Below, piece after piece: positions 4,001 to 54,875 of a stretch of 64,000 bases of DNA. Each line of letters opens with the position of its first letter. Position 1 is the first letter of the stretch. Under the pieces are notes generated by a model. The model had not been told where the DNA came from and made no database searches. It worked only from the letters and a program-made list of their open reading frames with translations. The DNA comes from Adineta vaga. Lineage: Eukaryota > Animalia > Rotifera. The stretch covers positions 434,001 through 498,000 of the forward strand of contig CP075495.1 in assembly GCA_021613535.1 (NCBI GenBank), written 5' to 3'. The position numbers were made by a program, and so were the translations under genes.

Positions 4001-7000
4001 ATATTTCTAAGTATGAAACTACCAAATATTATACTGAGCATCTGATTACTGGGATAGGTAGAAAAGTCCATCTGTTTTGATCAAAAATTTACAGAGGAAG
4101 CATTGCACCCTCATGTCCCACCTCGGCGGTTACGCTATTCTAGTTCTACATGACAAAAGTGATTTTTTTTACTATTCATTGATACACAAACATAGTTTTT
4201 TGCTTTGTTTTTTAGCTGGGTTTTCGTTTTACTAACAATTACGATTTCAATTCCGCATCAATCATTTGCGTTTGTGCTACGAATCCCAATTGTCATAGTG
4301 CAGCTGCTATTTACGATGTTTCTGTTGACCATGAGAATCCAATAATCAAAATCGATTTCATAGTACCTGGCTGGAATGCAGGTTGTTTTGTTACTGATTT
4401 TCTTTCGTTCTCAACACTTGAATGTTTCTATTCGTATTCAACTTGTTTATCAACTCTCAATTATCACATAAAAGAAATATACTTTAAAACTGAGCCAAAT
4501 CCATCATGGTTTGATGTTCGCCCTCTCGTTTACAATCGAATGTTAAGTCATTTTCCTCCAAACACAACAATTGCAAAGATAATTAAAGATATGATGGTTG
4601 AAACATGGAATCCATCATTTTCATACAATCATTATTACAAAGCATGTGCACCAAGTTACTGTACTTATTCTCGTGTAATTCGTACAAACGGTATTATCGA
4701 TGTGTTTTTGAAACTGATGTCTACGATCGGTGGAATTTCTGTCTCATTACGTTTCATCACGCCTAAACTGATCGAATTTGTTGATGCTTTATCGAAGTTT
4801 AAGTTTAGACGACGACGACAACAACAACAAGAACAAGGTAATTCTAAATATGTTAACAGTATCTTTCAAGAGAAGATTTTACAGTAAAATTAAGCTATAA
4901 AAATACTGGCAACTCAATGAAAATGATCAAAATTTTGAGTATCTCAGTTGAATATTATCATAGATAAAAGTAGATCTTCTTATTTCTTATTTATTTGACA
5001 AGCATTTACTTCATAAGAATAAAATTTATCACGTTTTTTATTTTTTGTGTACAGTTCGTTTAGGATTGTACGACAGATTGAAAATGATTGTACGGCGTTT
5101 GACCACGTTAGTGTATACCACTGTCGTTAATTTAAACATCTTCCTTCTGCGAGATTTTCGAAGTAATATTGATCGAATGACAGCTAATCGACTTGGTAAA
5201 TGGGCTACTCGTCTGTACATCGTTTTGTTCACCGTCGGTCTTGCTAATCTCGCATTATATACCACAATTCATCCTCGACTTTTAACGAAAAATTTTGATA
5301 AACCATCTCTCAATCTATATAATCGTCTTGTACATGTTTATAAAGATCAATTGGAATGTCCATGTTCACGGATTGCACCTACATACAATAAATATGTTGA
5401 CATTCAACCAATATTTCATGAGGTAAGAAATTATTATATTGAGGATCCCACCTCGGAGTCTAAATACTTTCTGAATATTTTCAAGCGAAGTTTCCCCTAA
5501 ATTTTATTTCGTTTCTCCATGTAAACTATATGTTATAGAAGAACACATTGAACAGTAACATCCAAAAACATACTTTCTATTCGTTCAGACCGACATTTGT
5601 TTTCGATTTCTTTTTCTTTTTTCTTGATTATAGATTTGTTCCAGTCCATTTGCTTCAGATGAATGGAGACAAAATGTCACAATTAATCTTATTCCGGACT
5701 TATCTCTTTACGATTTATACGACTATCGCCGTTTTCTCTCGGCTCATTTGCAATTTCTTTCTGGTTTATGTAAGCTTTCGACTGAATTAATCCAAAACTC
5801 TGTCAATCAATTTCTATCGTCAGTACTTGTCACTCGACGACTTCTATCAGAAAAAGATTTTCGCACACGTCTTCATGTACAGATTGAACAAAGCAAATCC
5901 AATGGTCCTACTACATTTAGTAATCTTTTCTTCTTAATTCGAAGTTTATATTATGGAAATAATCTAATGTCCACTTATGGAACAAATTTTCAGTATTTTA
6001 AACTTTCAGAATCATTTGAGAATTTTGCATCGATTCGAACTATGATTTATGACAATAATTGTAGCTGTGGATTGCATTCAAATTGTACAAGTCAAGCAAG
6101 TTTTCTCATAACAAATTCTTCTGATCCTATTGAAATCAAAGGTTTGAAAATCGGATGCACACCAAGTGAATCATTTCTTGCATCAACTCTCGAATGTTTC
6201 TATGATATTTCATGTATTAATCTTATTCAAGAATATACGAATTATACAAACAAAGTAAATGTTACAACTATTCCTATTCCTCATCTCTCTGCAATGATCA
6301 ATCAATCATCGGTCAATCTTACTATAGCTGAACTTGTCAACAATCTGTTCATTGAAAATTGGACAACGACAATGAATTATTCATCCTATTTTGAACAATG
6401 TTCTCCTTTGTTGTGTTCATATACCTACTTACAAAAATTCAACTCTTTGTACACAATTACTCTTCTGTGTGGTTTACAAGGTGGTCTCACTATTGTTCTC
6501 AAATGGATTTCTCCTAAAATAATTCAATATTTAACAATAGTATATCAACATCATCAGAAGAGAAAGAGACGTATTCAACCTGTCTCCACTATCGAAATGA
6601 TGTCTACCGAGAGTGTTGCTGCAGTTGATTCCACATTGATATCTACTGGCACAACATCTCTGTATGTCAATCTTTATTTTCATTTTATTTCTAATGTACA
6701 ATTGTTTTCTATAGAACGAATTTTCCAGTACGATGTTCTTTCAAACTTATTTTGAAATGTCTATTACTATTGATTTTATTGACAAGTCTCATTATATTTT
6801 CTATTTACTTTCTACGACAAACAAATAATCAAGATGATCTAACAAGTATGAGAATTGTTGAGCATCTTGAGGGTGTGGGTGTGGGTGTTCACAGAAGTTT
6901 TCTTTTGGGGAAATCTAAACATATCTTTTGAAACTCTTTACTATAGCTCTCTGGATGAATACGACTATCAATGCAAGTTCAAATACAACAACAACTACTA

Positions 7001-8337
7001 CGGAAAACAAAACAACGCCGACTGCAACTATGACAACCTGTTTTTCAACGAGTGCGTAGATTAAAAATACTTCTTTTCTCGCTTATCATCTTTCTAGTCA
7101 ATGGGAGAACCAAATCGAAAGTTAACGAGGAAATATTATAATTAGACATCATTCTTTTCCCAAATGTATTTAACTTGAACAATGAAAATAACGTCGTTGT
7201 TTTTTCTTCTTAGCATCAAGTTGTCAATTAAATTTTCAATCGATATCAATCGATGTACCTTGCGAATCAGAGTCAAACGTTGTTAGCGATTTCAACGGTG
7301 ACAGTCGATTAGATATCGCTTTCTGTTGTACTCAAGATAATAGCGTCAATATTCTGCTTGGAGATGACAATGCAACGTTCAGAATACTGATGAGACATTT
7401 TTTAACTGATCGAATACATCCGCAAGCCATTACCGTTGGTGACTTTGACAATGACAGTAAACTGGATGTTACCGTTATTAATCAGCAGAACGATGGTGTG
7501 GTTGTAGTCTTTGGCAACGGTGACGGAAGCTTCACAGCATTAGTAGAGCTTTCAACAAACAACGATATTAATCAAATTGGAATTATTGTTGCTGATTTCA
7601 ACAATGACACTTATTTGGATATTGCGAGTATTGGTATGAAAAGCGTTAACGTATTTCTTGGAAATGGTGACAGAACGTTTGCAATACCAATGTCATTTTC
7701 GATTGGAACGGGTATTCCGTCATCATCATTTGCCGCCGGTGCCTTCAACAGTGACAAATACTTAGACATAGCTTTTGCGGATTCTTACAAACATCAAATT
7801 GGCCTATTATTTGGATACGGCAATGGATCTTTTGCAGCACGAAAGACGTTCTTTATCTTAGGTGCTATGTCTCCAGATGAAATGAATATCGGTGATATGA
7901 ATGGCGACACGTATGTAGACGTTGTTATCTTTAGTCCGCTACAAAACACTATTATCATGATGCACGGATCCGAAGATGGGACTTTGGGTGCACAGAAGAA
8001 TTGTATCCTAAGTGATGAATCTCAACATCAAACAACAATTACTATTACTGATGTCAATGGTGATGATCACCTGGACGTCGTTCTCGGTAGAATGATGCCA
8101 CACGGCGTAATTGTGTTACTTGGACAAGGAAATGGACGTTTCGAAGAGCAAACGATATTTACGACTGATGAATGGAAAAATCTACCATTGAAAATTAGTA
8201 TTGCGGATTTAAATAATGATGGTTGTCAAGATATAATCGGTACGAATAGCTTTACAACTATTGTGTATATTCTTTTGAATACATGTCAATGCTGCGTGCC
8301 AAAGATTCTTGAAAGAACCTCTTCTGTAGGTCAATGA
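1078..8337 (+). CDS. 5'-partial large multi-pass membrane protein: three repeated Cys-rich TM-flanked modules + extra TM + Thr-rich stalk + 7 FG-GAP/VCBS repeats
   Basis: Manually spliced in-frame GT-AG exons 1078-1632, 2327-2633, 2690-2836, 3115-3728, 4216-4837, 5055-5422, 5634-6661, 6715-6845, 6947-7051, 7214-8337. Recurrent motifs LxCPCS, STL(D/E)C(L/F)Y and YxxxCxPxxxxY followed by a TM helix. Last exon has 7 DxNxDxxxD repeats. Start codon lies upstream of the identifiable exons. Confidence 0.85.
6867..6889 (+). repeat. Telomere-like arm TTGAGGGTGTGGGTGTGGGTGTT (intronic)
   Basis: Direct read; reverse complement occurs at 9034-9056. Confidence 0.7.
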
Positions 8338-17552: not shown

Positions 17553-18365
17553 TCAAACCTCAATTATAACATTTGTTGGTGGTGAAAATATTGGAAGAAA
17601 GTATCTTGCAACTGCACATGCTCGATTTGCAATATCTGATAAAGTTGTATATGATATTTGAAGAACATTTTTGACATAAGGACCTTTTCTTTGCCAAAAT
17701 TTTTGATTTTGAGCAACAGCTTGTAACTAAAACATTTGTTTTTCATCACTAAGACATTGTGTAATACCAAAAATAAGTTCATCAATTCCTGATGATTCTT
17801 TCCAAATATTTTGATCTTCATCGATATATGCTTTACTATTAACCATAGTTAAAAGATCATTTCTACCAAAATATTCTATATTTCCATCTTTAAATCGTTG
17901 AAAGAATGGATTAATATTCATAAGTAAATGAATACATTGTTCCATAACAGTAGATCGTCGATTTCCTGAATACATATTCGTACAAACCAAAGCAATGAAA
18001 ATATTTCTTTGTATACATTGTTGTAAAACCCATTTGACTTGATTCATATCTGCAAATGATGAAGGTGATATACAATAAATAATACAAATTGGATTTGTTT
18101 TTTGTATTAATTGATAAAAATATTGTTGAACATGTTGTTCTGTCCATGATTCAATACCAGGTGTATCCCAAAATTTAATTGTATAATTTAAACGAGAATC
18201 ATTAGAATTTCTTTGTTGTTCTAAGATATGTTCTGTAATTGATGTTGTACATGCATTTAAACTACTACTTGTTACAGCAACTTCTCTACCTATAATTGCA
18301 TTTATTAACGTACTTTTACCAACTCGACTCGCTCCGCATAATGTTACTGTAAAACTTTGTTCCAT
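17553..18365 (-). pseudogene. TRAFAC (AIG1/GIMAP- or MMR_HSR1-like) GTPase, copy 2, premature TAG
   Basis: GASRVGKS (G1), CT (G2), WDTPG (G3). TAG at 17727-17729 aligns with the Trp of WAQAVLDN in copy 1, and the frame continues (LQAVAQNQKFW) to TGA at 17553-17555. Confidence 0.75.
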
Positions 18366-18407
18366 AGAAATCTAGAATAGAAATTTCTCGTGAATAAAAG
18401 AATATAT

Positions 18408-19773
18408 TTATTGAGAAAATAAAGTAAATAAACGATATAAAATATTCGAAGTTCCTTGTTGCAAATTATTTTGAAGTTCTTTAGCTAAAAGACTTAATTC
18501 TGAATATTTAACTAAAACATATCCTTGCATTTGTTGATGAACTTTATTCCAATAACTTCGATTATCTAAAACTGCTTGAGCCCAACCACGAACAGCATGT
18601 TCTGATAAAGATTGCATAATACAATGTGTTAATTCATCAATACCTCGAATAGGTTTGATAATCGGTGATAAATCAGGATTTCCAAATGGTGTACTATTAA
18701 CCATTGTACATAAAGCATTTTCTCCAAACATAGTTACTTCATGTTTTCTAAGTATTGGATCATCAGTTTCGAATTCTAAGATTTTTCGAGGACCAAATCC
18801 TTCGAGTAAATTTTCAAGATCAGCTTTTGCAGACATTCGTGCTTCTCGTGAACCTGCGGAAAGGAAATTTGACGCAAGAAATAGATTAATTTGAAAACTT
18901 ACTCGCCCACATATTTGTTATCACAGCAGCACAAAAGATTTTTTTATAGAAACAATAATTAAGAATAACTTTGACTTGACTTAAATTAGCAAAAGTACCT
19001 GGTGCAGCACAATAAATAACAGCAATTGGTTGAATATGATCAATGATTTGAAACATTTCACCAATAGATTCTTGTTCAGTCCAATTTTCAATTCCTTTTG
19101 TATCCCAAATATATACTTTCGATTGTTCAGTAGAATTCGAATGTTCTGTTCCCTATTTTACTTCATATTTTTGTAATTTTTGTGTACAAGATTCTAAACT
19201 TGAACTTGTCTTTGCTTGACGTAGACAATTTCCAGTTAAAGCATTTGTTAATTGACTTTTTCCAATACGTGGTGCACCCATAAGAAGAATATTAAAATCG
19301 AGAGCTCTTTGTACATAATTGATTTCATTTTCATAAGCTTGATTTAACATAACATTCTGTACTTTTGTAGCGATTCGATTGAGAGCATCATCACGATTTG
19401 CTGTGAAGCCTATAGAAGAATTTAATGTTTTTTCTGTATTAGTTTGTGTTGATCATATATTGGAAGTTTCAATGTTCAAAACAGATTGTTGATCATCTTC
19501 TGTTGATGGATTTGATTCTACGAAGCTGAAAACTGGTTGTTGATCAATTTGATCTTCAGAAACACTTGAAAATTGAAAAAAATTCAAATGATTCTCTTGT
19601 TGTTCAGAAGAATGATTGTCAGTTGGAATATTCGATTGAACAAACATTGGAAAATTTTGTTCGGAATTTGTATTCAAAGGAATATCAATTGTTTCATCAA
19701 TATTTTCATTTAAATTGGAATGAAATGGTAATTCCAGCATAATATCAATTGGTTTTTCATCGTGTGTCTCCAT
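18408..19773 (-). pseudogene. TRAFAC GTPase, copy 1, with acidic N-terminal extension and premature TAG
   Basis: GAPRIGKS, SCT, WDTKG motifs. In-frame TAG at 19153-19155. Canonical intron 18902-18854 joins ...TNMWA to SREARMSAK. Acceptor at 19411-19410 has no obvious canonical donor. Confidence 0.7.
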
Positions 19774-20236: not shown

Positions 20237-22258
20237 TTAATTGAAAAAGTTTCGGTTGCAGCTGAAAGAGTTCAAATGTGCGGTAAGTTGTTTCCATCCT
20301 TCATCTACTTTATTGATTAATATTAGATCTACGATCCAAAGACTTCCGTATTGTTCAATTGTATCAATTTGAAAGACTGATGCCATTGAAAAAAGAACTT
20401 CTTCTTCGTCTTCATATATACTTTGATAATCAATTTTACTGAATGGAATTGAATGAGCAACACAAAGATCAATTGTAATTTGATAAATAACGGATACTTC
20501 TGATGTAGGATCTTCAAGTAAACCATCACCTGCGAAAAACACAGCTGCTTGAACATTATTTGTTGTCGATAGAAAACTATTCATCGAAATCAGCTTACCA
20601 ACATTTTCTTGAAGTTTCTTTAATTCGTTCATTTTCATACGTTGACCACGATATAATGTTAATATTCGTTGATCCTTATGTAATGATTGAATAAACGGAG
20701 TTTGTAGTTCAACTAGTAGATTATGTAAATCGTGAATAAAATATCGTAATTTAAAAATAGTATCAATATCTTCTAATCGAAGAGTTTCATGAAGAATACG
20801 ATAAAGAAATGAATCGGAAGTATACCATTTAATTGCATTTTCTTTTCGAAAAGTTTTATTGAATTCATCTATCTTCTTCAAATCATTTGGACTATCCGCA
20901 TATTTGTATTGAAACATTTCGATCATTTCTTGTCGAGCAAATTCAGTTTGATGAAGACGTAAGATAAGATCTATAAGCAATTGAAAAGCAAGAAAAGGTC
21001 CATTTTTGTTGTCGAGATATCGAGTGAAAATTTTTTCGTGACAATTCGAAAAAAAACTTTGTTCACCGATAGTTGCTTTCCATGGATTGATAATTGTACA
21101 AAATTCTTGATCATCTTCATCAACTGCTGTTAAATCAATATTCCACCGTTTATTAATATACTCAACTCGATCAATACGGAACAATGATCTTAGAGAGAAT
21201 ATATATTCATCTTCTTCGATAAACATACTCAAATCTTTGATTTGAGCACCTCTTATCTTTTTGCAACGTGAGTCAATGAATATTCGATAGAAAACCGATT
21301 GTATCTTTGAATGAGGTCTGAAATAAGTTTGAAAATAAAACTCTGCAATACTTTGATCAACGGTTGTGGACAGAAAAGAAGTTACTGTAATCAACTTTCC
21401 AATATTTTTCTTATGTTTATCAATATCATGAATGTGAAGCAGTTGAACTCGAAACAAACAAAGTGGTTTCGTATCGTCCTGTTCTACTGATAGTTTCTGA
21501 AGAGCTTTGTCGAAGTCTTGAATATAAGTACGCCATAAAAATATGTTGTTGATATCATTACTACGTAATGTCTCGTTGAGTTGTTGATGAAAGAAGGACT
21601 CTCGAGTGTACCACCAAACAGCATTATCAGCTCGATAGTCACGCTCAAATTCGTTAATGTCATCATTTGTATATGAATATGCACGACAGTAGGCACGAAA
21701 TTGAGCAATCATTTCATGTTTTGCAATGTTAGTATGTTGCAAATGACTAAGTACATTGAAGAAAAATCTGTACCAGAAAAACGTTGCACTATTATCCATT
21801 ACATATTGGATCTTGGCAGTTACAGGACGAGAAATACCTTTTAAATCATTAATGTCGTGTCGTATTTGTTCAAATAATATGTGGATATTGTTAAATGTGC
21901 CACGAAAACGTTGATTAGATACGAGTGGCCCGTGATATAAGACATTAGCGAATAAATAAATTAGTAGTACTCCAGGAACTTGTTTAAGTTCATATTTATT
22001 ACGATTTACGACAACACTGTTAGAAAATATGATTATTGCGATGTCATTTGCAGCAGCAAAATGTATTAAGCTGATGTTGAGATCTTCATCTACAGATTTC
22101 TCATACTCATATCTAGTAATACCATCGAATTTGCAATATGAAGAAATGTCATTGGGTAATTTATTGCCTATTCCATATATATAAACCATTGATGGAGACC
22201 AGTTGACGTTTTCATTAACTTCACAACTGACTGCAAATAAGCGTGGTAGATGAGCCAT
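20237..22258 (-). CDS. Intronless tandem double NAD:arginine-type ADP-ribosyltransferase
   Basis: 673-aa ORF with two repeats of WYT..SF..L..TLR / L(F/Y)R(V/G)Q / SFLSTT / E-x-E-(Y/V)(I/L)F. No TPR or TM segment. Confidence 0.85.
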   Translation of the reverse strand: MAHLPRLFAVSCEVNENVNWSPSMVYIYGIGNKLPNDISSYCKFDGITRYEYEKSVDEDLNISLIHFAAANDIAIIIFSNSVVVNRNKYELKQVPGVLLIYLFANVLYHGPLVSNQRFRGTFNNIHILFEQIRHDINDLKGISRPVTAKIQYVMDNSATFFWYRFFFNVLSHLQHTNIAKHEMIAQFRAYCRAYSYTNDDINEFERDYRADNAVWWYTRESFFHQQLNETLRSNDINNIFLWRTYIQDFDKALQKLSVEQDDTKPLCLFRVQLLHIHDIDKHKKNIGKLITVTSFLSTTVDQSIAEFYFQTYFRPHSKIQSVFYRIFIDSRCKKIRGAQIKDLSMFIEEDEYIFSLRSLFRIDRVEYINKRWNIDLTAVDEDDQEFCTIINPWKATIGEQSFFSNCHEKIFTRYLDNKNGPFLAFQLLIDLILRLHQTEFARQEMIEMFQYKYADSPNDLKKIDEFNKTFRKENAIKWYTSDSFLYRILHETLRLEDIDTIFKLRYFIHDLHNLLVELQTPFIQSLHKDQRILTLYRGQRMKMNELKKLQENVGKLISMNSFLSTTNNVQAAVFFAGDGLLEDPTSEVSVIYQITIDLCVAHSIPFSKIDYQSIYEDEEEVLFSMASVFQIDTIEQYGSLWIVDLILINKVDEGWKQLTAHLNSFSCNRNFFN

Positions 22259-23059
22259 TGTCCTTAATACGTATCAATTATGAACTTTGTTATCCTGTTC
22301 AAATTACAAGCGTAGATGTCGATGTGGTTGTTACTTATTTCTATCACTTATATCAGTAAATGAAGATAAGAATCTGTCTTGTTTAGAGCAGTAATTCATT
22401 TCTGTAACGCCGAACATTATGAAACTAGTTACCTTGCATTTCAGAAAACTCAATCATCAACTGGTCTGAGAAATCAACTCGACGTATATCGGATTACACT
22501 TAATTCCAGAATCGGCAAGAATTAAGTCTATTTCTGAAATTTTTCGAAATGTTAGAATTCAATTGACATTGAGTAGATCTCATGTATCATGTCGTGATCG
22601 AGTTCCGGAATTGGAACTGATTGTTTTTAGAGACGAATCAGAGTCCGTAAGGTTCAATATCACGGAATCAAGGGAGTTTTTATCTTCATGAAAATTTTAG
22701 AAAGTATAATGTAAGAGAAAGTAGAATACATATTGTTTCAATTCAGAGCGTCACCAAATAATTCTATTTAGAAGGAGACTAATCAATGACGAACCAACAA
22801 GACTAAAAGAAATAAAATCTTAAGTACGAACCTCTGTTGTTGATGCGAATTGTCGTTGAGTACCATTTCTAGTTCGGCATTCTGCAGTTGCTTATCCTTT
22901 TTGTCTGCATCAATCACCTTAATTAATAAATAGATAATATGATTTTACGAAGAACTGAAACTTGTTTATGTACTTTTGTAGAACTCAAATAGTGTCGTAG
23001 TCTTAGCAACAAACGATGTAAGCAACAACAGAATCTAGCCATGTAATACACTATAAAGA

Positions 23060-29752: not shown

Positions 29753-32218
29753 ATGACGAGCATTAAATTCTTCTTCGGTGTTTTTCTACTAGAAGTTTAC
29801 ATTGTGTATGCAACACATTTTCGTGGTGGTACAATTACATGGTTAGTTGTTCTTTCTTTTTTAAAATGATTTCAAACTTGATTTATTTCTAGGCGACCTG
29901 TGAATGCAACACCTAATGGTGCTTCCGCGGATTTTCTCATACGTGAACGATATTCATGGCGTCGCGGTTTTCCTGGCTGTGGCTGTACGGATGCAACTAT
30001 TGCAAGCAAGGGCCTTATTGGACCTACTCATTATGTTAAATGTACAGCTCCAACTCCAGCCGGTAGCTGTTCGTCTTGGACTAACTTAGTTACAACAACA
30101 TCTTGCACAGATTATAGTGTGAATCTTGATGTTAGTTCTGGTGAAAGAACAAGAATTGACAATTATCCATTGAATATTGCATTCACTATTTATTATACCG
30201 AAGCTGCATGGCTCAGTTTCCTTGTTAAAGGAAAGGATACAGATTGGTATGTAGCTAATCGAGTGAATACAAATCTCAGACCAGATGGTTATATCAATAC
30301 AAGTCCTGTTGCTGTCACACTTCCGATTATCTATAAACAAGTTGGTATTCAACATGTTCATGTTGTTCAAATGTCGGATTTTGATGGTTCAGATACTTTG
30401 AAATGTCGATGGGCAAATGCATCTAGTACTGTCACTCAGTATGATGAATGTGGTGGAATATGTGAAGGTGTTCCTGGTGCAAAACTTATTCCAGAAAACT
30501 GCACTATCGTATTTACACTAACAACTCCTGGTTGGTATGCAGGTGTAGCATTACAAATCGAAGACTACTTCACATCAACATCACCAACACCTATGAGTTC
30601 TGTTCCACTTCAGTTTCTTTTCTATGGTTATCCTGCACCTACTGGTTGTTCAACTCCACCAGAGATCATTGGTAATCGACCTAATCGAGGTAAGTTAACA
30701 CATCAATAAACACCTTTCTCTATATTTATTTGAAAATCATTTCATTAGCTTGTATTGGTACACCGATCGGTTCTAATGTCACTGAATATGTTATCGTTCA
30801 AACATTTTGTCCTGGTCAAACAATTGATGATTTTATAACAAGTTCTCCGATTGGTATGAAAAAGAGTGCGATTTTCAATCCAAGTCCAGGTTTGTCTCAT
30901 TTCAATCTCTAAGTTTGATATAATTTCTATTGTTGAATAGGTATTTATCATTTAATTCTCAGTTGGATTCCACAGTCAGATCAATATGGTCCCGAGCCAT
31001 TTTGTGCTGGTGCCATTGATAATGGAAATCTTCAATCCAATCAATGGTGTGTCACATTTTTAGTCGGTTTCGAATCACCTGACATCATTCGACCAACCAT
31101 AGTTCAAGGTTCTGTTTCTCCAATTGGAACTGTCTTTCAGAATCAGACAGTTTTCTCCTTTCAAAGTAACCATGGTGGCTTGTGTCCTTTAATATGTTTT
31201 CATTGTTTTATCTCTTTAGCAACAAAATCCGTCAATCGTCCAACACGTAACGGTACAACGATCTACTTTCGAGATGCTGCAAATGACACAGCTGTTGCAC
31301 AGTTTGATTGTGGTTGGGCACCTGAAGTCACATTCACCGGTTTCACAACCGTCATTCGTTTTGTCACTGTGAATTGGGAACCTGGTCACTTCTACTATAT
31401 CACAATGGATGGTGGTATGTTTTCTCTTGAGATGACCTCTTCTGTTTTATATATTTTATTTGTATTGATAATTGTAGGTGTTGTGAGTGGAACTGAGTTT
31501 TGTGGTAAGTCATCATTGTTTGTTGATATAAGATCAATTGAAATGATATTGTTAGGACCTGAATCTGCACCCATCACTGATAAAACTTATTGGGTATATA
31601 ATATTTGGAATCCTGCAGTATCATCAACAACAACAACAACCACGACACCATTTACAACAGTGACAGTAACAACAAAACCAACATCAACAACAAGTATCAA
31701 TACTTTAGTATGTTTTCATTTTATTGTACAATGTTTTATCATTGTGAATATTTTGATAATTAGTTAACAACAACTGGTATTGTCATAACAACAACTGCAC
31801 CTATAACAACAACAGCAACAACTTCATCAAGTTCACCTCCAACAACAGCTGGTAAGAAATGAAATATTCTTCATGTTTCTCTTTTCTATAATATCATTTC
31901 TTGTAGCTCCAACAACAGCTGGTCCAACTGCATCATCAGCAACAACTGAATCAACAGTTGCTGTCATGTATCCAAAAGATTTTGTAAGTGTTGAAACTCA
32001 ATTTGTATCTATAGATCTATATATATATATGTTGATGGTTGTAGGAAGAAGCATGTAAACAACCCGTAGCAATTATGACAAGTCTCATATTTATCGTGTT
32101 GATGCCTGGACAGGCTCTAGCGATGTATGCCATATTTACGAAACTTGAAAATATCTTTAATCCATCACGTATTCAAACAAAAACACGTCATAGACAACGA
32201 ATGAAACGAATTCTTTGA
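29753..32218 (+). CDS. Type I surface protein, HFRGGTITW (Sib/integrin-beta-like N-domain) family, copy 1
   Basis: Ten exons (29753-29841, 29893-30689, 30749-30889, 30941-31165, 31220-31414, 31478-31504, 31556-31707, 31764-31851, 31907-31983, 32045-32218). Encodes signal peptide, THFRGGTITW, DFDGSDTLKCRWA, VALQIEDY, PMSSVPLQF, an Ig-like segment, Thr stalk, TM and basic tail. Confidence 0.85.
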
Positions 32219-37274: not shown

Positions 37275-39745
37275 ATGACGAGGATTAAATTCTTCTTCGG
37301 TGTTATTCTACTAGAAGTTTATATTGTGTATGCAACACATTTTCGTGGTGGTACAATTACATGGTTAGTTGTTCTTTCTTTTTTAAACTGATTTCAAACA
37401 TGATTTATTTCTAGGCGACCTGTGAATGCAACGCCTAATGGTCTTTCAGCGGATTTTCTCATACGTGAACGATATTCATGGCGTCGCGGTTTTCCTGACT
37501 GTGGCTGTACGGATGCAACTATTGCAAGCAAGGGCCTTATTGGACCTACTCATTATGTTAAATGTACAGCTCCAACTCCAGCCGGTAGCTGTTCGTCTTG
37601 GACTAACTTGGTTACAACAACATCTTGCACAGATTATAGTGTGAATCTTGATGTTAGTTCTGGTGAAAGAACAAGAATTGACAATTATCCATTAAATATT
37701 GCATTCACTATTTATTATACCGAAGCTGCATGGCTTAGTTTCCTTGTTAAAGGAAAGGATACAGATTGGTATGTAGCTAATCGAGTGAATACAAATCTCA
37801 GACCAGATGGTTATATCAATACAAGTCCTGTTGCTGTCACACTTCCGATTATCTATAAACAAGTTGGCATTCAACATGTTCATGTTGTTCAAATGTCGGA
37901 TTTTGATGGTTCAGATACTTTGAAATGTCGATGGGCAAATGCATCTAGTACTGTCACTCAGTATGATGAATGTGGTGGAATATGTGAAGGTGTTCCTGGT
38001 GCAAAACTTATTCCAGAAAACTGCACTATCGTATTTACACTAACAACTCCTGGTTGGTATGCAGGTGTAGCATTACAAATCGAAGACTACTTCACATCAA
38101 CATCACCAACACCAATGAGCTCTGTACCACTTCAGTTTCTTTTCTATGGTTATCCTGCACCTACTGGTTGTTCAACTCCACCAGAGATCATTGGTAATCG
38201 ACCTGATCGAGGTAAGTTAATACATCAATAAACACTCTTCTCTATATTTATTTGAAATCATTTCATTAGCTTGTATTGGTACACCGATCGGTTCAAATGT
38301 TACTGAATATATTATCGTCCAAACATTTTGTCCTGGTCAAACAATCGATGATTTTATAACAAGCTCTCCTATTGGTATGACGAAGAGTGATATTTTCAAT
38401 CCAAGTCCAGGTTTGTCTCATTTCAATCTCTAAGTTTGATATAATTTCTATTGTTGAATAGGTATTTATCATTTGATTCTCAGTTGGATTCCACAGTCAG
38501 ATCAATATGGTCCCGAGCCATTTTGTGCTGGTGCCATCGATAATGGAAATCTTCAATCCAATCAATGGTGTTTCACATTTTTAGTTGGTTTTGAATCACC
38601 TGATATCATTCGACCAACCATAGTTCAAGGTTCAGTTTCTCCAATTGGAACTGTCTTTCAGAATCAGACAGTTTTCTCCTTTCAAAGTAAATCTTGTTCG
38701 TTGATGATTAAATCATGTTCTCATTGTTTTGTGTTTTTAGCAACAAAAGCTGTCGATCGTCCAAAACGTAATGGTACAACTATCTATTTTCGAGATGCTG
38801 CAAATGACACAGCTGTGGCACAGTTTGATTGTGGTTGGGCACCTGAAGTCACATTCACCGGTTTCACAACTGTCATTCGTTTTGTCACTGTGAATTGGGA
38901 ACCTGGTCACTTCTACTATATCACAATGGATGGTGGTACGTGTTATCTCTTGAGATGACCTCTTCTGTTTTATATATTTTATCTGTATTAATATTTGTAG
39001 GTGTTGTGAGTGGAACTGAGTTTTGTGGTAAGTCATTATTTGTTCATATATAAGATCAATTGAAATGAAATGAAATGATATTGTTAGGACCTGAATCTGC
39101 ACCCATCACTGATAAAACCTATTGGGTATTTAATATTTGGAATCCTGCAGCATCATCAACAACAACAACAACCACGACACCATTTACAACAGTAACAGTA
39201 ACAACAAAACCAACATCAACAACAAGTATCAATACTTTAGTATGTTTTCATTTTATTGTACAATGTTTTATCATTGTGATTATTTTGATAATTAGTTAAC
39301 AACAACTGGTATTGTAATAACATCAACTACACCTGTTACAACAACAGCAACAACTGCACCTGCAACTACAACTGGTAAACAATTCGAATATTGTTTATTT
39401 TGTCTTTTTTTAAATTAATTTGATTTCATTTAATTTAGCACTAACAACAACTGGTCCAACTGCATCATCAGCAACAACTGGATCAACATTCTCTGCGTTA
39501 TCTCCAAAAGATTTTGTAATTATTAATCTCAATTTGAATATATTTGTATCTATATATGTTGATGATTTTAGGAAGAAGGATGTAAACAACCGATCGCGTT
39601 AATGACAAGTCTCATATTTATTGTCATGATGCCGATACACTCTGCTGTTGTGTATGCTGCATTTACTAAAATGGAAAAGATGTTCAATCCATCCCATATC
39701 CAAGCAAGAACACGACATAAACAACGAATGAAACGAATTCTCTAA
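37275..39745 (+). CDS. HFRGGTITW-family type I surface protein, copy 2
   Basis: Same ten-exon structure; N-terminal exons nearly identical to copy 1; stalk, TM and tail diverged; stop TAA at 39743-39745. Confidence 0.85.
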
Positions 39746-46014: not shown

Positions 46015-48496
46015 ATGAATATGAAACTTTTTTTGATTTACTTTTTATTACAAATTTCTATTGTATATGGTTCGCATTTTCGTGGTGGAACAATTACATG
46101 GTTAGTCAATAGAAATATATTTTGTCTTGTCATTTATATCTAAGTTTGTTTTCTTTAGGCGACCTTTGAATGCAACACCTAATGGTGTTTCAGCTACTTT
46201 TATCATTCGTGAACGATATTCATGGCGTCTCACTTTCTCTGCAGCTACCTATTGTGATTCTAATACTATCGCTACTAGTGGTCTTATTGGTGCAGGTGAT
46301 ACTGTTCAATGTACAGGTGCATCTCCAGCCGGTAGCTGCTCGTCTTGGAGTACTATGCCTACAACAACATATTGTACAGACTTCAGTACTGCTCTTGATG
46401 TTAGTTCTGGTGAAAGAACAAAACAATATACATTTCCATTGGGTCTTTCATTTACCATTTATTATACTCAAGCTGCCTGGCTTAATGAACTTGTTGTAGG
46501 AGGTGGTTCACCATGGTATGTAGCTAATCGAGTGAATACAAATCTCAGACCAGATGGTTATATCAATACAAGTCCTGTTGCTGTCACACTTCCGATTATC
46601 TATAAGCAGATTAATATTCAACATGTTCATGTTGTTCAAATGTCGGATTTTGATGGTTCAGATACTTTACAATGTCGATGGGCAACTGCAACTGGTAATA
46701 TCAATCAATACAATGAATGTGGTGGAATTTGTAACGCTGTTCCTAGTTCTGTGCTTATTGGAACAAACTGTACTATTGTATTTACATTAACAGTTGCTTA
46801 TAGATATGCAGGAGTTGCATTACAAATCGAAGATTACTTCACATCAACATCACCAACACCAATGAGCTCTGTACCACTCGAATTTCTTTTCTATGGTTAT
46901 CCTGCACCTACTGGTTGTTCAACACCGCCAGAAATCATTGGTAATCGACCTAATCGAGGTAAGTTAATGCATCACTTGACACCTTTTTCTATATTTATTT
47001 GAAAATCATTTCATTAGCTTGTATTGGTACACCGGTCGGTTCTAATGTTACTGAATATGTTATCGTCCAAACATTTTGTCCTGGTCAAACAATTACTAAT
47101 TTTATAACAAGTACTCCAATTGGTATGAAGAAGAGTGCGATTCTTAATCCAAGTCCAGGTTAGTTCTTTCTCAATCTCTAAGTTTGATATAATTTCTATT
47201 GTTGAATAGGTATTTATCATTTAATTCTCAGTTGGATTCCAACATCCAATCAATATGGTCCCGAGCCATTTTGTGCTGGTGCCATTGATAATGGAAATCT
47301 TCAATCCAATCAATGGTGTGTCACATTTTTAGTTGGTTTTGAATCACCTGATATCATTCGACCAACCATAGTTCAAGGTTCTGTTTCTCCAATTGGAACT
47401 GTCTTTCAGAATCAGACAGTTTTCTCCTTTCAAAGTAACCATGGTGGCTTGTGTCCTTTAATATATTTTCATTGTTTTATCTCTTTAGCAACAAAATCCG
47501 TCAATCGTCCAACACGTAACGGCACAACGATCTATTTTCGAGATGCTGCAAATGACACAGCTGTTGCACAGTTTGATTGTGGTTGGGCACCTGAAGTCAC
47601 ATTCACCGGTTTCACAACTGTCATTCGTTTTGTCACTGTGAATTGGGAACCTGGTCACTTCTACTATATCACAATGGATGGTGGTACGTGTTTTCTCTTG
47701 AGATGACCTCTTCTGTTTTATATATTTGATTTGTATTGATAATTGTAGGTGTTGTAAGTGGAACTGAGTTTTGTGGTAAGTCATTATTTGTTCATATATA
47801 AGATCAATTGAAATGATATTGTTAGGGCCTGAATCTGCACCCATCACTGATAAAACTTATTGGGTATATAATATTTGGAATCCTGCAGTATCATCGACAA
47901 CAACAACAACAACAACACCATTTACAACAGTGACAGTAACAACAAAACCAACATCAACAACAAGTATCAATACTTTAGTATGTTTTTATTTCATTGTATA
48001 GTATTTCAGTATTGTGAATATTTTGATAATTAGTTAACAACAACTGGTATTGTCATAACAACAACTGCACCTATAACAACAACAGCAACAACTTCATCAA
48101 GTTCACCTCCAACGACAGCTGGTAAGAAATGAAATATTTTTCATGTTTCTCTTTTCTATAATATCATTTCTTGTAGCTCCAACAACAGCTGGTCCAACTG
48201 CATCATCAGCAACAACTGAATCAACAGTTGCTGTTATGTATCCAAAAGATTTTGTAAGTGTTGAAACTCAATTTGTATCTATATATCTATATCTATATAT
48301 ATATATGTGTTGATGATTGTAGGAAGAAGCATGTATGCAACCCGTAGCAATTATGACAAGCCTCATATTTATTGTTTTGATGCCTGGACAGGCTCTAGCA
48401 ATGTATGCCATATTTACAAAACTTGAAAATATCTTTAATCCATCACGTATTCAAACAAAAACACGTCATAGACAACGAATGAAACGAATTCTATGA
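46015..48496 (+). CDS. HFRGGTITW-family type I surface protein, copy 3
   Basis: Same exon structure; divergent signal peptide and N-domain; 3' half nearly identical to copy 1; stop TGA at 48494-48496. Confidence 0.85.
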
Positions 48497-49443: not shown

Positions 49444-49782
49444 GATTATTTATCGTGATATATTTTCGATTTGAAAGTTCATTCTCATATATATATTTTA
49501 TCCATTTATTTGAACAAATATTCATCAAAGTTTTTGCATCTCAAATGAGAAACACATACGTATATCGATAAAATATATCAACATGGAAAAGAATAACTAA
49601 CATTTACATCGAATAAAATCGGAAACAAGTCACTTTTGTATCCTATTTAAAAAGCATTTACAAGTTGACGGAAATTCGTCAACAAAAATAATCTATGACA
49701 GATGTTTCGATAAGTAACTCTTGTTGTGTTTCATTAGAATCAAAAGTATTATATATCACGTTTTCATTTGCACGTATAAATT

Positions 49783-52700
49783 ATGGAGAAATGTAATGAT
49801 CATCAGATTAAGTTGATATCCATACGAGACATTGATCACAATGAACAGATACAAAATCATTCTCAAGTATTTAATCAAACTATTAATATGACAAATATTT
49901 CATCAATACAAAGGACAGATGATATGTTAGATTCGAATAGTATTGAAAACAAAACAATTACAATCAATCCTCGACTTGTAGAACTGATTACTCAATCGCA
50001 AACTTTACCAATTAAGAATACTCAAATGATTCTGAATCCTCTTCAAGGATATGCCGAACAACCTCTTCTACCATTATCCAAAGCTTGTACACCACTCAAT
50101 GATATTTTTCATAATTTATCATTTTATGTTCAACAAGCATTGAATGAAACACCGGAACAACCAAAAGATGGATTAACTATTGATGAAAGTGCTTCAATTC
50201 GTCTTTATACATTAGAATGGGAAAAACCACATCGAAGTCTTTATTCATTACTCAATTTTACTTTAAAGAATGGAAATCGTGATGATCTTCTACCTTATTT
50301 CAAATATCTTAAACTTTTGTTAACTGCTCTAGTTAAATTACCATGTGTTCCATCATCAACAGTTTGGCGAGGAGTAACGAGAAATTTAAGTTCTGATTTT
50401 CCTCCTGGTACTGAAATAACATGGTGGTCATTTTCATCATGTACAAATGAAATGACTGTACTTGAAAATAATATGTTTTTGGGTAATCAAGGTGATCGAA
50501 CATTATTTTCTGTTGAAACAATAAATTGTCGAACAATTCGTGAACATTCACATTTTATTACTGAAGATGAAGTTCTTCTTTTACCTGGAACACAAATGAT
50601 TGTTCAATCACAATTATCTCCAGCACCTGATCTTTATATAATTCATTTAAAACAAATTCTACCTAAACAAATTTTATTAGAACTTCCTTTTGAAGGTAAA
50701 ACTAATGATAAAATTTGTAGATAAATTAAATTATATTTAATTCTTATAGGTGCCCATCTTTATCCTAAACCTAAGTAAGTAAATGATTTCATTAATTTCT
50801 AAATGTATTTTCTCTGATACTTTTTATGAAATGATCAAGACGTCAATGGTATCGTAAAAAGAGATTTGTCATTCCAAGTGTATTTTTCATCAGTCTGATC
50901 ATTGTTGGTATTCTACTCGGTTCTGTTCTCGGAACAAGATTCAAAAACAAATCATCAGGTATAGTTTGTTATTAGATCTTTATTATCAATTGAAAAATTT
51001 GCTTAGAATTTTAATAAATTCATATTGACTTTTTTCTTTTAGTAACTATATGTGATAATCCATTACAAGGACATATTTTCTATGATGCTGGAAAAAATCC
51101 ATGGGATGCAACACTTGGTTATTTCAGAAACAACAAAACCTTAGATGTGGCAGTAGTCAACTTCATCGAGAATACTGTTTATGTTTCTTTTGGAAATGGC
51201 GATGGAACGTTCCAATATTTAGGAAGAACTATGGTTGGTAAATATCCATGTTTTACAGCATCACATGATTTCAATAATGATGGACAATTGGATCTTGTCA
51301 TTGTTTTAAAAGAAGAAAATGCTATCACTATATTACTTGGTAAAGGAAATGGATTATTTGAAAATTCATATAATTATACAGTTGGAAAAAAGCCTTACTC
51401 TATATTAGTCAATGATTTTAATAATGATAATAAATTAGATCTAATCGTTCCAAATGAAGGTGATCATACTATTAGTGTCTTACTTGGAAATGATTATGGA
51501 ACTTTTCAAACTCCAACTAGTTATGCAGTTGGTATGGGTCCAATTCTTGCAGTGTCAAGTGATTTCAATAATGATGAAAAATTAGATCTTGCGGTGCTCG
51601 GTTACAGGAACGGTACCGTTAGTATATTCTTTGGTGATGGAAATGGAAAGTTTCATATTTTGATACATCATGAATTTAATCGATTGGCATACCATATGAT
51701 GTTGGGTGATTTTAATAATGACACAAAAGCAGATCTAATTATATGTTTGAATAACAAAATTATTAAAGTATTGTTAGGAAATGGAAATGGAACATTTGAG
51801 ATGTTTTTGAATAATACATTTATTGAAGATTGTTATACAGGAATAGTAAGTGATTTGAATAAAGATAATAAATTAGATTTAATATTAGCCAGTTTGGGGA
51901 ATAAATGTGTTACTGTAATGTTTGGAAATGGAAATGGAACATTTCAGAATGGAATCTGCTATAAGACTGCTGCCGTACCACAGCATATAATTTTGAATGA
52001 TTTTAATAATGATAGTTATTTGGATTTAGTGGTAGTTTATCAACAACAAAATACCATTAGCGTATTGATTGGCAACAGTAACGGAACATTTCACAATGCA
52101 TCGGACTATAAAGTTGGAAAGAAGCCAGTTCATCTGGCGACTGGTGATTTTAATAACGATAGAAAAGCAGATCTCGCAGTGATAAACGCTGATGATGGTA
52201 CTTTTAGTATTTTGTTGGGAAATGAACATGGAAATTTTCAGGCTGTAATGAATTATACAGTTGGTCATCGCCCAGCATCGTTAATAAATGGTGATTTTAA
52301 TAATGATAATAAATTAGATTTGGTTGTCGTTAATTTTTATGAAAACAAGATCGGTATTTTATTGGGAGAAGAACAAGGACTTTTTCGAACTCCAAAATAT
52401 TATACGGTCGGTGAAAATCCAAGTTCAATTATATCAGAAGATTTTAATAATGATAGAATATTGGATCTAGTAGTGACCAATGAAGGCAGCAATAGTATTT
52501 GTGTATTGATAGGTAATGGTAATGGTACTTTTCAAATACCAATATTCTATTCGACGAAAAGTTTGCCACAATTTTTAGCATCAGGTGATTTTAATCGTGA
52601 CAATAAATTGGATGTAGTTGTGACTCATAGTGACGGTTCGGTTGATGTACTATTTGGCGATGAAAATGGAAGATTTCAGAATCGAATATCATTTGATATT

Positions 52701-53114
52701 GATGATGCATTAAAAGCAGTAGTAGCATACGATTTCAATCATGATGAAAAACTTGATCTCGCAATAGCCTGTTTTCTTAACGGGAGCGTCATTGTATTAC
52801 TTGGTGAAGGAAATGGAAAATTTCACTTTTTTGCACAATATATCGTTGGTTCACAACCAAATGCTTTAGTATTAAATGATTTCAATAATGATGGAATATT
52901 CGATTTAATAGTAAATAGTTTTAATAGTAATACGATTAAATTATTACTTGGTAATGGAAATGGAACATTTCGAACACCAATACAATATATGATTGAAGGA
53001 AATCCAACTTCTATTAGATCAGGTGATCTAAATAATGATAGAAAACAAGATCTAATTGTAACAAGTAATAATCCTTCGCGTTTTTATGTTTTTTTGAATA
53101 TTTGTGAAAATTAA
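49783..53114 (+). CDS. Receptor-like ART: cytosolic mono-ADP-ribosyltransferase + single TM + 14 FG-GAP/VCBS repeats
   Basis: Exons 49783-50695, 50750-50774, 50840-50958, 51043-53114 splice in frame. ART motifs VWRG, WSFSSCT and EDEVLL; KPKRQWYRKKR then TM FVIPSVFFISLIIVGILLGSVLG; 14 DFNND-type repeats with many NxT/S sequons. Confidence 0.88.
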
Positions 53115-53266: not shown

Positions 53267-54465
53267 TTAAATATGAGTGTCTCCAACAGTTCTTGGTATG
53301 GTGTTTCTTTTTGTACGATTAGATTCTTGAGTAGTTAGTTGTTGTCGATAAAATAAATGAATTAATTCACGACGAAATGATTTACTTGATAATGTAAATA
53401 GATAAAAACTCATACATGATGAGAAATTAGCTATTGAACTACCAGCATTTCCAAGACTTCGATCTCTTAATTTTTCTAATTCACTTTTAATCATATTACT
53501 CGCTATGGTTACATAGAGTTGAGAAATTGAACCAATACTTGTTGTTGTAATGAAAACTAAACATTGAATTGTCAACATTTGAAGAAATTGTCGATCTATT
53601 TTGTTTTGATTTCGATGAATAGGATTTGATATATTTTCTGATGTTACAATTCTTCTTCTACCTTGACGAACATTTCGAATAGTGAGAAAACCAAAAACAA
53701 GCATAAAGATAGTTGGAATCCAACTCCAAATCACCAAATTCCATATCGACCAAAACGTTCGATAAGTGCTCGTTACAGATGTACATGATCGTTGAGGATA
53801 TAAGATAATTCCTTGATAGAAAGGTGCATGAATTTGAAGAAGAAAAACAAATAGAATTGTAAGTGGAATAGCACGAGTTGCCACACGAATACTACTCCAT
53901 TTTCGATATTTAGCAGATGATGAAGTACATAAAAATCTAAATACAATTAGAATAATTAAATCTTATCGAAATATATTCGAACATCGAAAAGTAGTGACAA
54001 CGATATTTTATAAAATATCGTTGTCACTACTTTTGAATATCCCTATGTACCGATCAATTGAAGCCAAAGTCATTAACCATGATGGTACTATTCTAAAAGA
54101 TAAGAAAAGAATAATTAGATATGAATATATTTGTATTAAGTCATAACTTACCGAAAACAAAATAAAAGATAGGATAGAATTTGACATGTTGGATTTGAAT
54201 ATATGAATACATCGATATAATATCCAACTTGAAGTAATCGTAATGGAACAAGAGAACAGACAACAGCACAACCAGATAGTGTTGATGCCATAAAATAATG
54301 TGTACATGGACTTGATCGAAAAGGACGACGTGTAAAAACATAAATACTTAATGTATGTCCAATTATACCAAAAATTATTAGACAAATATTCCATATTTGA
54401 TTGAATATGTTTAAACGTTCAATATCATTGACGAGATTTGACATAGTTGTATTTGATGATGACAT
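53267..54465 (-). CDS. Orphan class A (rhodopsin-like) GPCR
   Basis: Exons 54465-54152, 54092-54051, 53936-53267. FGIIGH (TM1), CQ..YL, LASIDRFLC (DRY-like), IPTIFMLVFG, SFYLFTLSSKSFRREL (TM7/helix 8). Confidence 0.85.
53987..54034. repeat. Perfect 48-bp loopless palindrome in GPCR intron 2
   Basis: AAAAGTAGTGACAACGATATTTTA|TAAAATATCGTTGTCACTACTTTT. Confidence 0.95.
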
Positions 54466-54875
54466 GTTGATTTATAAAACGACTGAATGAAAGTTTTATC
54501 ATACTAAATAACTCTATATTTTGATGATATGATTATAAAACTAATCTTTAATTTCTTTCTCATCAAAATTTGATCATATTCAATCTACTATATGAATGCT
54601 TATGATAATTCTATAGCTTAACATTAGTTTTTGACGTCATAAATTAATTATAAAAATAGAAAATGAAATTGTCAAATTCTGACAAGATGATTCTTCAACA
54701 TTCAATATTTTTATCTCGACAAAAATCTATTCTTTTCATGATTATTTTATAAAATAATGAACAGAAACGTACAGACAACAATTTCTTTCGATATTCAGCT
54801 GTCGTAGAGAAAAAGATTTTAATCTAATAAATCAATTTTATTTACAAAATCAAAGATAAATTTCCTAAATACATT

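Follow-up and report, generated by a model that had tools for sequence, protein, structure and literature searches.

A candidate receptor-type ADP-ribosyltransferase with a double FG-GAP propeller in the bdelloid rotifer Adineta vaga

Gene structure and domains

The window, i.e. the whole stretch of DNA analysed, comprised 64,000 nucleotides (nt) of Adineta vaga contig CP075495.1 (assembly GCA_021613535.1, positions 434,001 to 498,000 of the forward strand). A gene on its plus strand, at 49783..53114, codes for a protein with an ADP-ribosyltransferase (ART) domain, one transmembrane (TM) helix and an array of FG-GAP repeats. The surrounding genome is AT-rich (~30% GC) and intron-containing. 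Two open reading frames (ORFs), 49780-50724 and 51018-53114, are the long frames of the gene, and an earlier note on this DNA had joined them through two small exons of 25 and 119 nt. This model was borne out: the four exons, separated by GT-AG introns, join into a single open frame of 1,042 amino acids (aa).

Exon 1 (49783..50695, on the plus strand like all features of the gene; 913 nt, ending in phase 1) codes for an N-terminal extension of ~80 aa without a signal peptide, followed by an ARTC-type (R-S-ExE) domain (about 50020-50694). Intron 1 (50696..50749; 54 nt, GT..AG, phase 1) is followed by exon 2 (50750..50774), a 25-nt microexon coding for a conserved LYP linker, and by intron 2 (50775..50839; 65 nt, GT..AG, phase 2). 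Exon 3 (50840..50958; 119 nt) codes for a W-Y-basic juxtamembrane cluster (50841-50864) followed by the only TM helix, at about 50865-50936 (residues 322-345), which bears a zipper of G336, G340 and G344. Intron 3 (50959..51042; 84 nt, GT..AG, phase 1) splits the TM exon from the ectodomain exon, exon 4 (51043..53114; 2072 nt), which carries 14 FG-GAP repeats, each 48-49 aa long and together modelled as a pair of 7-blade beta-propellers, and ends with the stop codon (53112-53114). Pfam matches, hydrophobicity and repeat count agreed on the order ART, basic cluster, TM helix and 14 FG-GAP repeats that had been read from the sequence before.

The splice junctions were compared with four intronless paralogous ORFs, described below. 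In 4/4 of them the end of exon 1, the whole of exon 2 and the start of exon 3 were strictly consecutive, with no gap or overlap (e.g. exon 1 to 742, exon 2 at 743-767, exon 3 from 768), and junctions 1 and 2 are therefore base-exact. Intron 1 is missing from all four, and the three introns gave scattered spurious matches only. The acceptor of intron 2 is AAG, a weaker acceptor, and is the first AG 3' of the pyrimidine tract. Junction 3 (50958/51043) is supported by its GT-AG borders, by the frame, by homologous gene models (P0008, P0011 and P0015 for the intron; six models have the order ART-TM-FG-GAP), by an Atlas cluster of 138 members in which both domains occur and by exon 4 itself, which begins 84 nt past the TM exon without an early ATG or a signal peptide of its own. 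Among the pieces of the window gene listed from four contig sets presumed to be RNA (4 of 14 runs), none crosses a junction. One paralogous X9 contig (800 nt, 36 differences over 50415-50697) runs without intron 1 into P0239-like linker sequence; since intronless paralogues exist, it is no proof of splicing. A joint of 50657 to 51411 in X9, carried by a single contig with 22 letters on its short side, was too weak and was not used.

The ART domain matched Pfam PF01129 with E 5.8e-8 (32.8 bits, cut-off 22.3). The R-S-E triad named in the earlier note is intact: R196 (VWRG, 50368..50370), S219 (FSSCT, 50437..50439) and E263 were conserved in 30/30 aligned sequences. The ARTT loop, x-x-F-x-x-E-x-E (50548..50571), has F258 as its aromatic residue and ends in E261-D-E263, of which E261 was present in 29/30. 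Such a loop, x-x-aromatic-x-x-E/Q-x-E, is described in PMC8120803, with ExE typical of arginine-modifying enzymes. From these residues the domain would be catalytically active in mono-ADP-ribosylation of the arginine type.

The AlphaFold model of the ART domain had a predicted local distance difference test score (pLDDT) of 92.4. Foldseek matched it to Vis, HopU1, ART2.2 and C3-type enzymes, and a wide structural search gave 21 chains at Z >= 8, those listed being ART-fold toxins and enzymes. Rat ART2.2 (PDB 1GXY) was the top match (Z 17.6, root-mean-square deviation 3.4, 206 residues aligned, 16% identity), tied within 1 Z unit with HopU1 (16.8) and the Tre1 toxin/immunity entry 6DRH (16.7); XopAI (15.3), ExoS (14.4) and Vis (13.1) followed. 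The ART fold is cholera-toxin-like; toxin-type, as the domain had been called, is too narrow a name, the best structural match being a vertebrate ecto-enzyme. Cholera/C2-like enzymes were rejected as closest kin on the lower scores of the C2/VIP2-type toxins (Z 11.5-12.2). A PDB sequence search with the ART alone gave no matches, and one with an alignment gave peroxidase matches only, from a partner domain.

Exon 4 matched FG-GAP_3 in Pfam with E 1.5e-81. Its 14 repeats consist of 13 with DxNxD loops and one degenerate first repeat, and the ectodomain model (pLDDT 92.5, predicted template-modelling score 0.72) contained 56 strands, i.e. 14 four-strand blades. Best among single-propeller structural matches were integrin alpha heads (Z 33-35, about 320 residues aligned), followed by many further 7-blade propellers at Z 30-33. 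The two 7-blade propellers proposed earlier are consistent with this 14-blade model and its integrin-propeller-like fold. No lectin propeller was among the best 50 matches, by which a lectin role is not excluded. Foldseek returned generic multi-propeller proteins, and a PDB sequence search returned one match only, a secreted esterase. In sequence, the neighbours of the ectodomain are FG-GAP/VCBS proteins from bdelloids and bacteria (30-39% identity). Because the two propeller halves are 42% identical, in register, and most ART-linked homologues are long enough for one propeller only, the window copy has likely doubled its propeller.

Loops of the DxD/NxDG type are the calcium-binding motif of FG-GAP propellers. 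In the window protein the acidic positions are kept in 13 loops, and the loop glycine is present in 2/13, against 75% in five named bacterial proteins. Identity to bacterial and bdelloid FG-GAP proteins is 33-39%. The window loops have diverged from the bacterial DxNxDG pattern, and calcium binding by the window propellers is uncertain. Among 12 named bdelloid FG-GAP proteins checked, three (P0080, P0081 and P0085) are type II TM-FG-GAP proteins that have a short N-terminus and lack an enzyme domain; they are possible co-receptors or decoys.

The ART-TM family and its predicted topology

The family set consisted of 46 longer homologues with the window type of ART, of which 42 are named Adineta, Rotaria or Didymodactylos and four come from unnamed or metagenome records. 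A TM helix lies within 75 aa after the ART in 26/46. Beyond it are LamG/ConA domains (14 homologues), FG-GAP repeats (6), PAN (2), heme peroxidase (2), LCCL (1) or Cys-rich repeats (1), so that the survey of ART-TM-X proteins proposed in the earlier note gave at least six kinds of outer domain on the same ART-TM module.

A tree was made of 45 ART domains, with a midpoint root only; P0040, whose match was short, and P0046, for which the script search gave no match, were left out. All TM-type forms fell within one 40-row ART branch (support 100/100). The LamG, FG-GAP, PAN and peroxidase partners each required at least two changes, and a single origin was found in 0% of 200 bootstrap trees. Comparison of these sequences shows one conserved ART-linker-TM module with repeatedly swapped outer domains in a bdelloid family.

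Among the best 150 of 3,259 representatives, a TM helix followed the ART in 8/15 informative representatives at >=55% identity and in 1/95 below it; for short or cut representatives the counts were 1/16 and 1/24. The TM helix is thus specific to the close clade. Partner domains of the distant relatives (67 of the 150 scanned, selected by length) included LRR_6, NHL, TPR, Ras/AIG1 GTPases, ubiquitin, kinase, TIR-ankyrin and MACPF. One Atlas cluster of 138 Rotifera-dominated members had FG-GAP_3 in 97% and ART in 90%; another, of 170 members, had the ART fused to an ADP-ribosylglycohydrolase (ARH), and further clusters were ART-NACHT-TIR and ART-MORN. A third homologue search, from P0201, gave eight matches, none new. 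No close relatives were found in prokaryote genomes or viral contigs by a word-pattern search, which is a weak negative.

The window protein has one strongly hydrophobic segment, 322-345 (Kyte-Doolittle 19-mer 2.68), with a basic cluster before it. The predicted topology is type II, with a cytosolic ART and outward-facing propellers. The earlier note had argued for this topology from basic residues and from glycosylation sequons. The first argument stood, as lysine and arginine were commoner before than after the TM helix in 24/26 homologues; the second held family-wide, with 1.1 sequons per 100 aa on the ART side and 2.3 on the far side, and is taken up again below for the window gene. Cysteines showed the same trend family-wide (1.2 and 2.0 per 100 aa, respectively). 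The soluble sister ARTs are fused to domains of cytosolic type, which fits a cytosolic enzyme.

The reverse arrangement would make the protein an outward-acting enzyme or defensive A-B-like molecule, its ART luminal or released, its propellers binding a target cell and its hydrophobic segment aiding delivery. In fold the ART is closest to an ecto-enzyme and to secreted bacterial effectors, an ART-MACPF fusion occurs among the soluble sisters, and the order of enzyme, hydrophobic segment and binding repeats recalls A-B toxins. This explanation is very improbable, since a signal peptide is absent from the window protein and from the TM homologues (an N-terminal hydrophobic stretch in 0/26 by a crude scan, some models being partial) and the basic cluster stands on the ART side. 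The disulfide-rich PAN and Cys-rich domains beyond the TM helix also speak against it, and place the ART and outer domain on opposite sides of the membrane.

The TM helix is conserved whatever the outer domain. GxxxG was present in 31/36 TM segments, small-x3-small-x3-G in 29/36 and a W-aromatic motif before the TM in 35/36, these 36 rows being related rather than independent sequences, so that a shuffle baseline overstates their significance. Small-residue zippers of the GxxxG type drive the pairing of TM helices. A homodimer prediction for the ART-TM part of P0009, in which the alignment was unused, scored 0.22 against a mark of 0.32 and was not counted as evidence.

Several homologues are recorded for their partners. 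P0013 and P0019 join the ART-TM part to a class I heme-peroxidase outer domain and are candidate peroxide sensors; the distal R-x-x-W-H motif is kept in P0019, and its histidine is lost in P0013. P0003 has a second ART after the LamG region and likely represents fused gene models. P0254 is an ART with a MACPF/SNTX-like domain and P0270 an ART with polyubiquitin. In P0043, which lies outside the TM clade, about 90 aa separate the ART from a hydrophobic stretch, and NHL repeats follow. The P0288 cluster (28 members, many on 34-43 kb contigs) has a 1,109-aa ART-TPR-kinase-ART protein and could be a discrete element.

Receptor function and alternative explanations

The gene product is read, with moderate confidence, as a type II receptor enzyme. 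The TM helix would be a signal anchor, given the missing signal peptide and the basic residues that flank the helix on the side of the ART. Both propellers would bind a multivalent ligand, such as a glycan, a microbial surface or an extracellular protein, which would cluster the receptors. The conserved small-residue zipper would then pack the TM helices and shift the juxtamembrane linker, upon which the cytosolic ART would move ADP-ribose from nicotinamide adenine dinucleotide (NAD) onto arginines of cytosolic targets or of the neighbouring receptor. ADP-ribosylarginine hydrolases would remove the mark. As a repertoire, these receptors probably sense non-self or the environment, and would form the membrane branch of a far larger collection of soluble ART-sensor fusions. 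For a wider proposal the balance is about even: bdelloid receptor ADP-ribosyltransferases would combine exon-shuffled sensors (FG-GAP, LamG/ConA, PAN, LCCL, Cys-rich, possibly a peroxide-sensing heme peroxidase) with one cytosolic arginine-ART, and together with hundreds of soluble fusions and ARH erasers would form a signalling and immune layer written in arginine ADP-ribosylation, not phosphorylation.

The nearest parallel in architecture is with receptor kinases. Plant receptor-like kinases combine one catalytic module, a TM helix and a variable outer domain; in the window family the inner enzyme is an ADP-ribosyltransferase instead of a kinase. The analogy drawn in the earlier note is apt insofar as one TM helix stands between a catalytic and a variable outer domain in 26/46 homologues with six outer types, and the enzyme-less TM-FG-GAP proteins parallel receptor-like proteins. 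P0155, a bacterial-type kinase-TM-FG-GAP protein, has the same N-in order and repeat type as the window protein, with a kinase as its enzyme. Integrin alpha chains share the 7-blade FG-GAP propeller, of which the window protein has two copies. They are type I proteins with an N-terminal propeller, leg domains and a short cytosolic tail, whereas the window propellers lie C-terminal to the TM helix and no thigh or calf domains were found in the Pfam scan.

Among ART enzymes, the vertebrate ecto-ARTs (ARTC1-5) resemble the window ART in PF01129, the R-S-ExE site and the whole-domain fold. Their catalytic domain is extracellular, on proteins that are secreted or glycosylphosphatidylinositol-anchored (PMC9027952); the window protein differs in its missing signal peptide, internal TM helix, predicted cytosolic ART and 700-aa outer domain. 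HopU1, Tre1, XopAI, ExoS and Vis are of the same fold class and act on cytosolic targets, as is proposed for the window ART, but are soluble and delivered into other cells, whereas the window gene is from an animal, contains introns and encodes a TM helix and outer domain of its own. Bacterial A-B and binary toxins (cholera, C2) are prokaryotic and secreted, with a separate binding/translocation part, in contrast to the spliceosomal introns, bdelloid relatives and integral TM helix of the window gene. PARP16 (ARTD15) is membrane-anchored with a cytosolic catalytic domain and acts in stress signalling (PMC3634511), and so has the placement predicted here; it is listed as an ARTD/PARP in PMC9027952. 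It is nevertheless diphtheria-toxin-like (H-Y-x) and tail-anchored, with a short luminal tail, a single gene and no folded variable ectodomain, against the R-S-E site and internal TM helix of the window protein.

The earlier note knew of no functional description of this architecture, and none of an ART-TM-ectodomain family turned up in the full-text literature, a search to which most subscription papers, genome-paper supplements and some ART reviews were not open. The window ART-TM family is not mentioned in the available text of PMC3417536, PMC3482391 or PMC7955679. A UBL-ART family that includes rotifers (PMC12957317) is distinct from it, and a lectin survey left out TM proteins (PMC8878817). 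FG-GAP is among the expanded families of PMC3846280, where defence or signalling is suggested. Database annotation already gives ART and FG-GAP on these proteins, without comment. Every single domain belongs to a known family; the architecture is new, and the receptor class would be new if the receptor reading is right.

The single-pass receptor enzymes described so far signal through kinase, phosphatase, cyclase, RNase or TIR domains. If the reading holds, a family that couples interchangeable outer domains to a cytosolic arginine ART would constitute a new receptor class, with ADP-ribosylation instead of phosphorylation, and would offer a clean system for learning how an ARTC enzyme is switched by signals at the membrane. 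It would also bear on how asexual bdelloids diversify recognition. Animal arginine ARTs are given as extracellular in PMC9027952, where the origin of arginine ADP-ribosylation inside mammalian cells is treated as an open question.

Several findings weigh against the receptor reading. In the window gene the sequon argument fails and was rejected: the ART exon has 9 sequons in its 304 aa (3.0 per 100), a higher density than that of the FG-GAP exon, with 14 in 689 aa (2.0 per 100). Ectodomain labels were clustered on the tree (17 changes against 29.3 when shuffled), and an appearance of ectodomain swapping could also come from gene conversion among the ART domains.

Published expression data point the same way. 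Supplement file 14 of PMC11258130 gives 431 ART-annotated genes for A. vaga and 366 for A. ricciae, with 58 and 48 hydrolase-annotated genes, respectively; from the file order it appears to be the table for horizontally acquired candidates. The ART term was enriched among genes down after fungal exposure, with 6 genes at 7 h (false discovery rate (FDR) 4e-5) and 19 at 24 h (FDR 1e-12) in A. vaga and 8 at 24 h (FDR 0.024) in A. ricciae. It was absent from the up sheets of that file, whose counts cover all ART-annotated genes without distinguishing TM forms; ADP-ribosylation is not mentioned in the available main text. The decrease argues against an induced antifungal effector. In the preprint of the infection study (10.1101/2021.09.04.458992) TIR receptor genes were also down, and receptors may be constitutive.

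At the level of the transcript, exons 2 and 3 together measure 144 nt and, as introns 1 and 3 are both of phase 1, could be skipped in frame. By script, 20/46 homologues have no TM helix adjoining the ART. Two of these stop at the basic cluster and one, P0046, has a TM helix that the script missed; about ten have partners of the kinds named above but no TM helix before them, and the remainder are distant soluble or chimeric models. In several TM-less models the ART exon end is directly joined to FG-GAP, PAN, peroxidase or Kelch, as in the database models P0001 and P0002, which link the ART straight to FG-GAP. In-frame skipping explains such models, as mis-predictions or as real isoforms; soluble forms of receptor-type genes may exist, or the TM-less models may be wrong. 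Intron 3 retention would also end the protein, at a stop within a few codons. The window copy might then be made as a TM-skipped soluble ART-FG-GAP protein, as a tail-anchored ART or not at all, a case to which the weaker AAG acceptor of intron 2 adds. It was judged improbable, as the four exons are open and conserved, exons 2 and 3 match the intronless paralogues, the FG-GAP exon has no start or signal peptide of its own and follows closely on the TM exon, and six homologous models are of the ART-TM-FG-GAP order.

Some ART-TM members have a tail of just 8-25 aa, so that an outer domain is not always present. An ungated, membrane-tethered ART would account for them: with the topology as predicted, the outer domain would only position the enzyme (adhesion, sorting to the surface or gut membrane, retention in the endoplasmic reticulum or vesicles), and activity would be set by expression, NAD level or cytosolic partners. 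Tail-only forms such as a 306-aa ORF and the enzyme-less TM-FG-GAP proteins (3/12) are in line with this, the peroxidase outer domain may itself be an enzyme, and ART gene ontology (GO) terms shift under stress, including desiccation and spaceflight (PMC10809525, PMC12220480); in PMC10809525 the 'ADP-ribosylation' GO signals of the bdelloid stress transcriptome are discussed via PARPs, although the arginine-ART term is attached to hundreds of genes. A mere tether is nevertheless rather unlikely, having no need for at least six unrelated binding-type outer domains, recruited repeatedly, nor for a TM zipper and a juxtamembrane motif that stay conserved whichever outer domain is present. A gated receptor enzyme is the preferred reading.

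Intronless paralogues and neighbouring genes

A homologue, P0176, is encoded without introns at metagenome loci L001-L004, in a bdelloid-like region; L001/L002 and L003/L004 are the same two places in two assemblies. In L002 and L003 lie four uninterrupted ART-TM ORFs in divergent, head-to-head pairs (L002 4369-7392; L003 4879-7389), three with PAN and one with a 23-aa tail. The intronless tail-only ORF is 306 aa long and stands beside full-length copies. Further ART ORFs are found nearby (L002 1-393; L003 1362-2195). The intronless copies may have arisen by intron loss or retroposition, and their paired layout recalls sensor/executor pairs. A viral origin was rejected, the neighbours being animal-type genes that include one 52% identical to a window gene.

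Within the window, the ART gene is met by a 7TM-receptor-like gene on the minus strand (53267-54471), which converges on it with the stops about 150 nt apart; its last exon had no Pfam match at E 0.01. A soluble double-ART gene (20237-22273, minus strand), which represents a second ART type in the window, has a 678-aa ORF with two PF01129 stretches and no TM helix. It adjoins two adjacent ORFs (17727-18917, minus strand), of which the one scanned has AIG1/IIGP/Roc-like GTPase matches. A second FG-GAP propeller exon (7192-8337, plus strand; 6 Pfam stretches) ends an apparent long, repeated multi-pass membrane gene with ORFs at 1078-6755 upstream, one of which was scanned and had no Pfam match. 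A near-tandem triplicate on the plus strand (29882-31767, 37404-38958 and 46106-47706) codes for Cys-containing, apparently secreted or surface proteins with no Pfam match, and a relative of these proteins, 52% identical, is encoded near the ART-TM-PAN cluster in L003.

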